A stretch of 63,305 bases of DNA, counting the filler, from Diploschistes diacapsis (Eukaryota), in assembly GCA_023645945.1 (NCBI GenBank). It is 13 parts of 13 records of this genome, joined end to end, with 100 filler letters (N's around TTAATTAATTAA, not from the genome) between each part and the next. Parts side by side here need not be neighbours in the genome. Positions count along the whole stretch, not along the records: positions 50,929 to 53,956 come from JALAIB010002023.1; 12 more parts are not named here. The stretch is one strand, 5' to 3'. The first letter of the stretch is position 1. The number at the start of each line of letters is the position of its first letter. Under the pieces are notes generated by a model. That model saw nothing but the letters and a program-made list of their open reading frames with translations, made no database searches and was not told the DNA's origin. Positions 50,658-53,385 of this stretch are shown in pieces. A program made the translations under genes and the position numbers.

Positions 50658-51927
50658 TGACGCTAAGCCGATTTCAACCCCGGTTTTTCTTGCCGCCCGG
50701 AATTACTAAGTCCGCCGTGCTTGTTGTCGGCTTTGCGTTTCGAGAGCATCAATCACGTGTACTCTCTCGAACGCAGTAAACAGCTACAGCTGAATTGTTT
50801 TTAAAATGTGTAATATACATATATATATNNNNNNNNNNNNNNNNNNNNNNNNNNNNNNNNNNNNNNNNNNNNTTAATTAATTAANNNNNNNNNNNNNNNN
50901 NNNNNNNNNNNNNNNNNNNNNNNNNNNNGTATTGAAGAACGGGAGGAAGTGGATGGGTGAGGGGAAGCGGCATGGTGGAAGGGGGGTTTTATGGGATGGC
51001 AGCAGCTCCTAGGACAGTGGCGCTGGGAGAAGGTTTAGAAGTGGCAATGGATCGTATGGCTGAGGGGCATGTTTTGGTGAGTTGTCGTCTATTGGTGCTT
51101 TCTGCTATCTCTGTTTCGCTGTTGCATTGAACATATGGGGTGGGTGTTTCTATGTATGCTTACGATCAACTGGCTTGCCTCGACGAGTTTCAGAGAAGGA
51201 TGTTTCGTTAAAGCTCGCGGGAATTGCCTCGTTCCCATGAAATCGTGCTCTACACATAAACTCGCGGCGTATAGCCTGGTACAAAACGCACGGCATTGTT
51301 CTGGCGCGTTTGGTAATTCAGGATACAGGCAGCATCTTGAAATTAGGAGCTGACGATTCAGAGTCGCATAAAACCGCTTTCACCTATCTTGGATCCATTT
51401 GTTCACTTCCGCAGCATTTTGGGCATCTTGTATAGCGACATAGCTCGATCACTTCTATCGATAGCGCTATGCGCCTACCCAAGCTGCCCTATCATGCAAA
51501 TCCCTCCATCACGTTAACAAAGGCAGGGGAACAAGGGCTGGTTTCTCATCTCAACATGTCGCAGACAATGAAACGTGAAACAAGAGCACACAGCAGAGGA
51601 ATAGCGCAGATGGCACAAAACGCACAAAGAGCCAAGCAAACCCCAAATTAAGACAAAGCAAGAAAGCACCGGCCATGGACTCCGACATCAACTTCCGACT
51701 TCGAACAGCCACAACTCCCAGTCCCCCTTATCCCAACCTCGTCCCAAGTATATTACCCTTTCCTCCCACTCCCTCGTGCTCGACCTCCTGACATTTTCCA
51801 AAAAGCTAAAGGCCCCCTCCGACCCCAAGAAAAAGCCAACCTTCAATTCTCGATCTCAGGCAGATCACTACGTTCACCACTACCTCCGTCAACCCCACCT
51901 TAACGAGGCCCCCCGCCCCGAATCAAA

Positions 51928-52194
51928 ATGCTTTCCAAGTTCGCCTACGCGACAACCGCCCTCCTGGCCGCCAGCGTTGCCGCGCAGCCCATTGCGCAGG
52001 CCCCCAACGCCGGCGCCGTCCTCTCCGCCGTCGAAGCCCTCGAGCCGGCCGTTGTCGCCGAGGCCGGAGCCACCGCCACTCAGGTAGCTGCCGCCGCTGC
52101 TGCTGCTAAGCGCGGCGAGATGCCGGAGAAGAGGAGCGGCTGCCTGGGGTATGTTAATAACCAGTGCCCACCTGATTCTTGCAGTGTTATGTAA
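51928..52194 (+). CDS. 88-aa peptide precursor: signal peptide, Ala-rich pro-region, two KR sites, Cys-containing C-terminal peptide ending in CaaX (CSVM); candidate pheromone precursor
   Basis: AAAATG start context, strongly C/G-ending codons, MLSKFAYATTALLAASVAA|QP...AKRGEMPEKRSGCLGYVNNQCPPDSCSVM*, AATAAA downstream near 52294. Confidence 0.8.
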   Translation: MLSKFAYATTALLAASVAAQPIAQAPNAGAVLSAVEALEPAVVAEAGATATQVAAAAAAAKRGEMPEKRSGCLGYVNNQCPPDSCSVM

Positions 52195-52907
52195 GAAAAG
52201 CGTTATGTGAGGAGTGGGAGGGGCGAGAGTGGATGGTGTGAGGGAAAACGGGGGAGTTAGGGTGTTGAAGGTGTTGAGTGAGACTTGTTGAGAAATAAAT
52301 CTAATAGATTCGGATCGTATGATTCTGGCGTTATCCGGTGCGAATCTTGAGTGCTGGAAGAGGCTCGGCGTAGTAACAAGTCTGGGTACTGTTGTCCTGG
52401 TTCATTTCGGCGGCACGCCTGAGAAGATGCTGGAGCTGTCCAAGGTCATATAGTCCCTAAGTGTTCAGCCATTTCTGCCGCGATCTGCCCATTGACCCGA
52501 AGAAAAGCGTTAATTGGAATCGCAACAAGAGAGAATAAAGGAGATTGTTAGTTCGACCTGCCTTGGCCATCTATCCCAAGTCTTGATCCGTGCGAACAGA
52601 AAGGCAGCTTCGTCTAGGATCACGATAAGTCGACTTCGTACCTCTCTAAACACGCGGACAGTCAGAAGACTCACTGAGTCAACGCTGCCCATTAGACTCC
52701 CTTCAAACCTTTCTCTCCAGCCAGCGAAACGAACACAGGTACGAGATAGAATTATTTATTTCCACTTTAATCTCAACTCTCAACTCTCTCTTCCTCAATC
52801 TAGGAACCCTATTACCTCGAGTTCCATAACAAACCTCGTGTCCTTCACCCTCCATCACCTTCCATCTCGACCATCATATCCAAGCCAATCTCAACAGACC
52901 ACCCACA

Positions 52908-53385
52908 ATGTCCCCCTTTCAATCCATCCTATCCTACCTCTTTCCCCCCTCCGGCTCCTCCGGCTCCTCCGGCTCAAGCTCAGACTCAGCGGCGTTCTCG
53001 CAAGACACCGCCAACGCTACCTCGCCCTCTACCACCTCGCCCTCCAGTACGTCTCCCACCACCGTCCCCTCTGCCTCTTCTACTACACCACCCTCAGCCC
53101 CAACCACAACCACATCTCCCCCCACCACTCCGGACCCAACCCCGAAATACCCCCGTTCAAAGTGGAATTTCCTTCCAGTAAGTTACGTCCATATATCTCA
53201 CCCAGCAAGCAAGCAAGCACCCTTTCACTTAATCCAGCACCCAAGTCCGAGTCCCGTCGGGGCCGTCGCCAGCCCTGACTCGCCAAAAATAAACCAAACC
53301 AAACTTAAAAAACGGCGCCAAGAGCTGACGCGTTGGTGTGCAGGAAGACATCGAGTATTCTTCCGACTTTGGGCCGTTTTTGTAG
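52908..53385 (+). CDS. 103-aa Ser/Thr/Pro-rich hypothetical protein; intron 53178-53343
   Basis: CACAATG start; GTAAGT...GCTGAC...CAG intron gives ...PTPKYPRSKWNFLP|EDIEYSSDFGPFL*. Confidence 0.7.

Follow-up and report, generated by a model that had tools for sequence, protein, structure and literature searches.

An 88-codon open reading frame (ORF) of Diploschistes diacapsis, a lichen-forming Lecanoromycete, on balance probably encodes a Kex2-processed, disulfide-looped extracellular peptide. It would come from a single-exon, lineage-restricted gene, and the CaaX-type motif at the end of its product would be idle. We infer secretion, cleavage, the disulfide, and the function from the DNA, as follows. 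Translation would begin at the first ATG, and a signal peptide would take the chain into the ER. Kex2 would cut both Lys-Arg (KR) sites in the Golgi and release a peptide of 19 residues that has a single disulfide loop, its third Cys being free or available for a dimer. Outside the cell, the released peptide would serve the lichen fungus in signaling or defense. The CSVM end, being lumenal, would be out of reach of farnesyltransferase, a cytosolic enzyme, and would stay unprenylated, a coincidental look-alike of a prenylation motif. As judged here, the product (P0001) is one more orphan secreted peptide and a candidate signal for lichen biology. An earlier note on this DNA had interpreted the gene as a hybrid of alpha- and a-type pheromone precursors; the secretory half of that interpretation is supported, the CaaX end is probably real, and no test came out positive for the hybrid-pheromone half.

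An ORF with the layout of a secreted peptide precursor

The window, meaning the whole stretch of DNA analyzed (63,305 nucleotides, filler included), consists of 13 separate contigs with runs of N and the linker TTAATTAATTAA at the joins, and neighbors in it belong to other contigs. The ORF for P0001 (51928 to 52194, plus strand; 88 amino acids in a single exon) is real and is single copy in the genome at both the protein and the DNA level. It stands alone on its own 3028-bp contig (G000:C1140, 50929 to 53956) in an assembly of 4361 contigs, and its gene neighborhood is therefore not readable. Chs7 and EB1, its neighbors in the window, were ruled out as genomic context since they are on separate contigs. 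Several contigs of the window are AT rich (GC 0.28 to 0.35) and resemble decayed repeats.

All features of the precursor are on the plus strand. Residues 1 to 19 (51928 to 51984) form a putative signal peptide, called by a hydropathy heuristic only, with cleavage placed by eye; its best 9-mer scores 1.67, and the same crude filter was passed by 36 of 841 random ATG ORFs. There follows an Ala/Pro-rich pro-region (residues 20 to 60, 51985 to 52107), which has the top codon score of the ORF. Two putative Kex2 sites, KR at residues 61 and 62 (52108 to 52113) and KR at residues 68 and 69 (52129 to 52134), flank a 5-residue spacer (52114 to 52128) that includes Met65. The remainder is the putative mature 19-residue peptide SGCLGYVNNQCPPDSCSVM (52135 to 52191), with Cys72, Cys80, and Cys85 and a monoisotopic mass of 1972.8 when unmodified and reduced. 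Its last four residues are the CaaX-type CSVM (52180 to 52191). A G-rich stretch ends at an AATAAA (52294 to 52299), which probably marks the end of the 3′ UTR. The ORF, the KR pairs, and the CSVM end are thus all present as the earlier note had described them, and so is the in-frame ATG at 52120 (Met65), from which a nested ORF of 24 amino acids, starting with Met-Pro (MP), can be read.

The context of the first ATG, CAAAATG, is a stronger fungal start context than that of Met65, GAGATG. Third codon positions are G or C (GC3) in 58 of the 72 codons upstream of a candidate splice donor discussed below, against a genome mean of 0.53; the tail has a codon score in the 3rd percentile of coding windows. 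The coding-like pre-pro region and the strong first start count for a secreted peptide, and together with the signal-like N terminus (by the heuristic), the two KR sites, and the Cys-looped terminal peptide they support the secretory half of the earlier claim. A single-sequence AlphaFold model (pLDDT, 61; pTM, 0.29) was uninformative. Dikaritin RiPP precursors have repeated core peptides and a nearby DUF3328 gene; P0001 lacks repeated core peptides, and its contig is 3 kb.

Three smaller features of the contig deserve mention. Upstream of the gene is a 38-codon ORF (51675 to 51791) that ends in CSTS; it is probably noncoding, since two deletions shift its frame in X2, a close relative described below. 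A degenerate 11-base duplication (52183 to 52210) creates a second Ser-Val-Met-stop 16 bases past the first, in a different frame, and its ATG is altered in X2. Farther on, a probable second gene (52908 to 53385) would encode a Ser/Thr/Pro-rich protein of about 103 amino acids, with a 166-nt intron (53178 to 53343). A Pfam scan of this candidate gave no match, and an Rfam scan of the contig was blank.

P0001 is an orphan

No relative of P0001 was found by word-indexed searches at near, longer, and shorter lengths, by a HMMER scan of all 1.84 billion representatives, or by tblastn against metagenomes. A search for RNA runs containing the sequence listed none, which has no bearing on whether the gene is expressed. 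The ESM Atlas was blank for both the whole protein and its tail, and neither Pfam nor the PDB sequences gave a match. Its 90% protein cluster has two members, the other being P0002 (KAI4140463.1), labeled Diploschistes diacapsis. A scan for the degenerate pattern KR-x-GC-x-GY-x4-C-x4-C gave 43 loci; none of the 24 KR-in-frame loci that were read looked by eye like a signal peptide precursor. P0001 is an orphan with no detectable homologue, and the gene is probably lineage restricted. The absence of a homologue in every search, together with weak recognition by ESM (2238), could mean a young or decaying ORF that makes no functional peptide. We find this highly unlikely, given the coherent order of signal, pro-region, KR, KR, and peptide, the strong start, the high GC3, and a frame that is kept in X2.

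The protein probably does end in the CaaX motif

The tail overlaps a GT..AG intron candidate, and the NCBI gene model is spliced there, a point that the earlier note had missed. The NCBI model removes 47 nt (52149 to 52195, plus strand) with an AAG acceptor that lies beyond a CAG; because of this splice, its product, P0002, equals P0001 over 74 residues and then diverges, without a CaaX. A second, in-frame candidate of 36 nt (52149 to 52184, plus strand) shares the donor at 52149 and has a branch-like CTGAT at 52172 and a CAG acceptor. Splicing from 52149 would remove both the loop and the CaaX box, leaving a mature peptide of 7 residues (36-nt intron) or one with the P0002 tail (47-nt intron), and the a-factor-like features would then be read-through of splice signals. 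Donor, branch, and acceptor motifs are all present, and they overlap the codons for GY, PD, and CS, respectively. GC3 drops at the donor from 58/72 to 4/13 (Fisher p=0.0007), the NCBI annotation is spliced, and STE2 of this fungus has an apparent in-frame stop-free intron.

Several observations nevertheless make either intron improbable. Among 49 calls of frame-supported introns (some repeated) from 533 kb of genome, none was shorter than 45 nt, in a survey that excluded in-frame stop-free introns by design. In the high-scoring intron set, donor and branch lay 33 nt or more apart, versus 23 in the candidate at 52149, and intron motifs of 35 to 39 nt were found 8 times, versus 8.5 in shuffles (425 kb), with no excess. 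GC3 dips elsewhere too, falling to 4/11 in codons 50 to 60.

Variants in near relatives bear on the same question. X2 consists of contigs of a sequencing run, organism A, about 97% alike; X3 and X4 span the ORF stretch in pieces only, and X1, which could be where this DNA itself comes from, was left out of the count. X2 differs from the ORF by four full-depth changes: A6T and A41V, both conservative missense changes in the pre-pro region, and two silent changes in Pro codons of the tail. The chance that two of two tail changes are silent is 0.033 (silent-site fraction, 23/126), and one of them removes the conserved T of the branch-like CTGAT. Four changes in the second exon of the NCBI model produce two stops and two missense codons in X2, so this model (52149 to 52242) is probably wrong. 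Full-depth indels in X2 number 9 in 1034 flanking nt versus none in the ORF, among the main-depth pieces listed. The pro-region tolerates variants, namely, A41V in X2 and X3 and A44P in X3. The first KR, Met65, and CSVM are the same in X2, which is weak evidence at 97% identity. The X2 variants favor the unspliced frame. Taken as a whole, the evidence makes it very probable that the tail is read unspliced. CSVM is then probably the true protein end, and the locus is a case of a public gene model with a probable error in its 3′ part.

The CaaX motif and the nested ORF against chance

CSVM itself is a validated motif: it belongs to the prenylation-positive training set and, on yeast data, is predicted to be both prenylated and cleaved (PMC9231725, in the supplements available). 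Genome-wide, there are 197 sites of C-x-[VI/M]-M with TRR directly after it, versus 164 for a reversed control. We read the ends of 60 of 100 listed sites and of 27 GY-anchored loci from the whole genome, 80 distinct ends in all; TGG ends, microsatellite repeats, P0001 itself, and the last few listed sites were left out of the 60. An in-frame Met lies 15 to 110 codons upstream in 20 of the 80 CxVM-type ends sampled, and two ends, those of P0001 and of an ORF on contig G000:C64, have both an upstream Met and a GY. Several of the sampled C-x-[VI]-M ends belong to proteins that resemble genuine prenylation targets. When a real gene ends in CxVM, the motif is therefore often meaningful, and this is the main point favoring the earlier note. 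As a rough estimate, a secreted Cys peptide that ends in CxVM is expected by chance about 0.02 times per genome.

Could the gene then serve two routes? It might yield a secreted peptide as well as a prenylated lipopeptide, the latter made from Met65 or from precursor retained in the cytosol; alternatively, an a-factor ORF may have been captured behind a signal and pro-region and may now leave the cell by the classical secretory route. Short precursors may linger in the cytosol before posttranslational translocation. If true, one lichen gene might feed both export routes and address both Ste2 and Ste3, an exception to the rule by which alpha- and a-type pheromones have separate genes and export routes. 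The nested ORF does have a-type features, as it starts with MP, is 24 residues long, and, in the unspliced reading, ends in CSVM, with G74-Y75 and with N77 and N78 lying 7 to 8 residues before the Cys. GY and Asn 5 to 20 residues before the Cys are found in P0001 as expected of an a-type precursor, but this GY is also the splice-donor-like motif. An a-type precursor is short and has no signal peptide, a description that suits P0001 only if Met65 is used, not the full ORF. The shift in composition at the tail and the conservation of Met65 and CSVM in X2, weak at this identity, are also compatible with two routes.

Against this, the first ATG has the stronger context, the nested ORF has no Ser/Thr-rich N terminus, and its GY is distant, 9 residues from the Cys. 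There are about 12 in-frame GY..CaaX-stop sites genome-wide, and with a Met upstream in 20 of 80 ends, one ORF of the nested type is expected by chance. Candidates resembling a-factor are abundant by chance in yeasts as well, where CaaX plus Asn ORFs number 100 to 700 per genome (bioRxiv 10.1101/2021.09.28.462209, in the part available). Among the entries of a published CaaX/CPAX filter, 3 of 41 are hydrophobin-like (PMC10569646, part of the material), so a signal peptide and a CaaX-like end occur together in ordinary secreted proteins. No published precedent surfaced for a precursor with both a signal peptide and a CaaX, and a separate a-factor-like gene, P0003, exists elsewhere in this genome. 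We consider the use of two routes quite unlikely. Our preferred reading, a secreted peptide with an idle CaaX, has its own difficulties: CSVM is a top-grade motif, one of an odd number of Cys residues has no explanation, the nested ORF has its MP start, its 24-residue length, and its GY, the tail has a low coding score, and no alpha-factor gene was found.

Two further features cited in the earlier note lost their weight when compared with chance. The pro-region was said to be rich in X-A/X-P dipeptides, and indeed these make up 8/20 and 13/20 in the two registers; this richness is explained by composition, since Ala plus Pro is 51% of the region. The residues after the two KR sites are GE and SG, neither of which is X-A/X-P. 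Similarly, the three ACAAAG sites proposed as HMG-box-like elements do exist (51517 to 51658, plus strand, at 51517, 51624, and 51653), the third altered in X2 with its CAAAG core kept. Their number is unremarkable, as 42 shuffles of the contig out of 200 reached three copies. A post hoc window, the 500 nt upstream, gives p=0.005 for three copies, but five hexamers reach 3 copies there. For the CAAAG core, which is the element described for hpp1 (PMC3068285, part of the text), enrichment has p=0.22. The MAT1-1-1 motif YYATTGA is absent upstream of the ORF on the contig, where both matches are downstream, and a bare ATTGA occurs upstream at 50931 and 51126 only. The promoter motifs of P0001 are at or near chance level.

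Mating genes and other pheromone candidates

STE2, STE3, and MAT1-1-1 are all present, and the genome is MAT1-1. The locus (L204:967-7723, on G000:C113) runs from SLA2 to APN2, with MAT1-1-1 and, on the opposite strand, an unnamed frame of 192 codons between them; no HMG box was matched among 7 frames of this stretch scanned with Pfam. In STE2 (L005:502-1698, minus strand), the frame stays open across the apparent in-frame stop-free intron, about 26 codons long and located by eye between the last two helices.

In a search for a tandem alpha-factor gene, the pattern WC-x3-GQ-x-C had 2 genome matches versus 2 in the control. The looser C-x3-G-[QE]-x-C had 75 matches and no close same-strand pair, and 15 read in context revealed no tandem gene. 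An alpha-factor-like decapeptide on G000:C146 was rejected, as it is read in a shadow frame on the strand opposite to a gene of 819 codons (L018:2-2461), presumably a WSC-domain glyoxal oxidase by resemblance; the decapeptide shows that such motifs arise by chance.

P0001 could then be a divergent alpha-type mating pheromone, taking the same secretory route, with its one mature peptide acting as the Ste2 ligand and CSVM unused. In favor are the presence of STE2 and STE3 in a MAT1-1 genome in which no tandem alpha-factor gene was found, the atypical single-peptide alpha-factors reported in Erysiphaceae (PMC10569646, in part), and a C-x7-C loop that resembles the C-x6-C loop. We still judge this unlikely, because P0001 lacks repeats, X-A/X-P before the peptide, KR after it, and GQ/PG or a WC start, and there is no upstream YYATTGA; moreover, a canonical, repetitive alpha-factor gene can be missing from an assembly of 4361 contigs. 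Were P0001 the Ste2 ligand so far missing from this lineage, it would be of greater importance, as our literature searches for pheromone precursors of lichens yielded little, and no precedent surfaced.

A better candidate for an a-factor-like gene lies on another contig. A GY-anchored pattern identified P0003, a 56-amino-acid ORF (L118:1501-1671, or G000:C64:5759-5929, minus strand) with GY and a CCCIPCTVM end; the spacing of its motifs is shorter than in our first Leotiomycete a-factor pattern. It has a Ser/Thr-rich leader and no signal-like segment, and its exact sequence is absent from the protein collection. Compared by eye, its tail motif is that of the Leotiomycete putative a-factor (PMC10569646, supplement S10, in part). 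Going by its sequence, P0003 looks like the counterpart of that putative a-factor in a lichen fungus and would extend the range of the family to one; no published report of an a-factor pheromone in Lecanoromycetes surfaced. The a-factor slot is filled by P0003 only provisionally, since the paper describing the Leotiomycete family itself doubts a mating role (PMC10569646, in the part available). In Sordariomycetes, the a-factor gene is located between cyanase and EBP2. Here, these two genes are on other contigs, in stretches that gave no convincing a-factor candidate when read, and the contig of P0001 has neither as a neighbor. The separate a-factor-like gene and the missing pheromone hallmarks count for the secreted peptide.

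Comparison with known systems

The route that P0001 would take is that of an alpha-type precursor or a Kex2-processed repeat protein, KEP (PMC10569646 and PMC7329392, both in part; further comparison sources on pheromones, likewise in part, are PMC8661429, PMC11077750, PMC8022922, PMC10182648, PMC11787670, and PMC13712828). Lichen names had no match in the available part of the KEP paper supplements. Like alpha-type precursors (Ppg1/PpgA/Ccg-4) and KEPs, P0001 has a signal peptide, putatively, an Ala/Pro/Glu-rich pro-region, KR sites, and a short Cys-looped peptide. Unlike them, it has no repeats and has one terminal 19-residue peptide in place of repeated mature peptides of 9 to 14 residues; the peptide follows KR at the end of the chain, whereas theirs have X-A/X-P before and KR after. 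It also lacks WCxxGxxC and a GQ/PG turn.

P0001 is not h-type. HPP1 of Trichoderma reesei likewise combines two KR sites with a C-terminal C[ST]VM, but it has three (L/I)GC(S/T)VM copies and no predicted signal sequence, while P0001 has one CSVM and a signal-like N terminus (PMC3068285, in part). With the Leotiomycete putative a-factor (BCIN_13g03330 family; PMC10569646, part of the supplements) it shares GY, several Cys residues, and a C[ST]VM end, but it is without the Ser/Thr-rich leader and the CxxCDGYxCCCIP..C[TSV][VI]M tail, a tail that is present in P0003. MP starts are found in 17 of 60 a-factors listed (PMC10569646, in part). The nested ORF resembles the Sordariomycete a-type precursors (Neurospora MFA-1 and Fusarium Ppg2) in its MP start, 24 residues, GY, Asn, and CxVM. 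It differs from them in lying, putatively, inside an ORF with a signal peptide, in two extra Cys residues, in a charged segment in place of the Ser/Thr-rich N terminus, and in a GY that is 9 residues from the CaaX Cys, versus 0 to 3 in the GY-bearing, MP-start a-factors listed. P0001 thus lacks most of what defines alpha-, a-, and h-type precursors; with the weaker context of Met65, the nonsignificant promoter motifs, and the separate a-factor-like gene, the case for the hybrid pheromone proposed earlier is weak.

Kex2-processed small secreted proteins of fungi consist of a signal, a pro-domain, KR, and a Cys-containing mature part, and they are often orphans. P0001 differs from such proteins in a mature part of only 19 residues, an odd Cys count, and the lack of a sequence relative, but it has the same order of parts.
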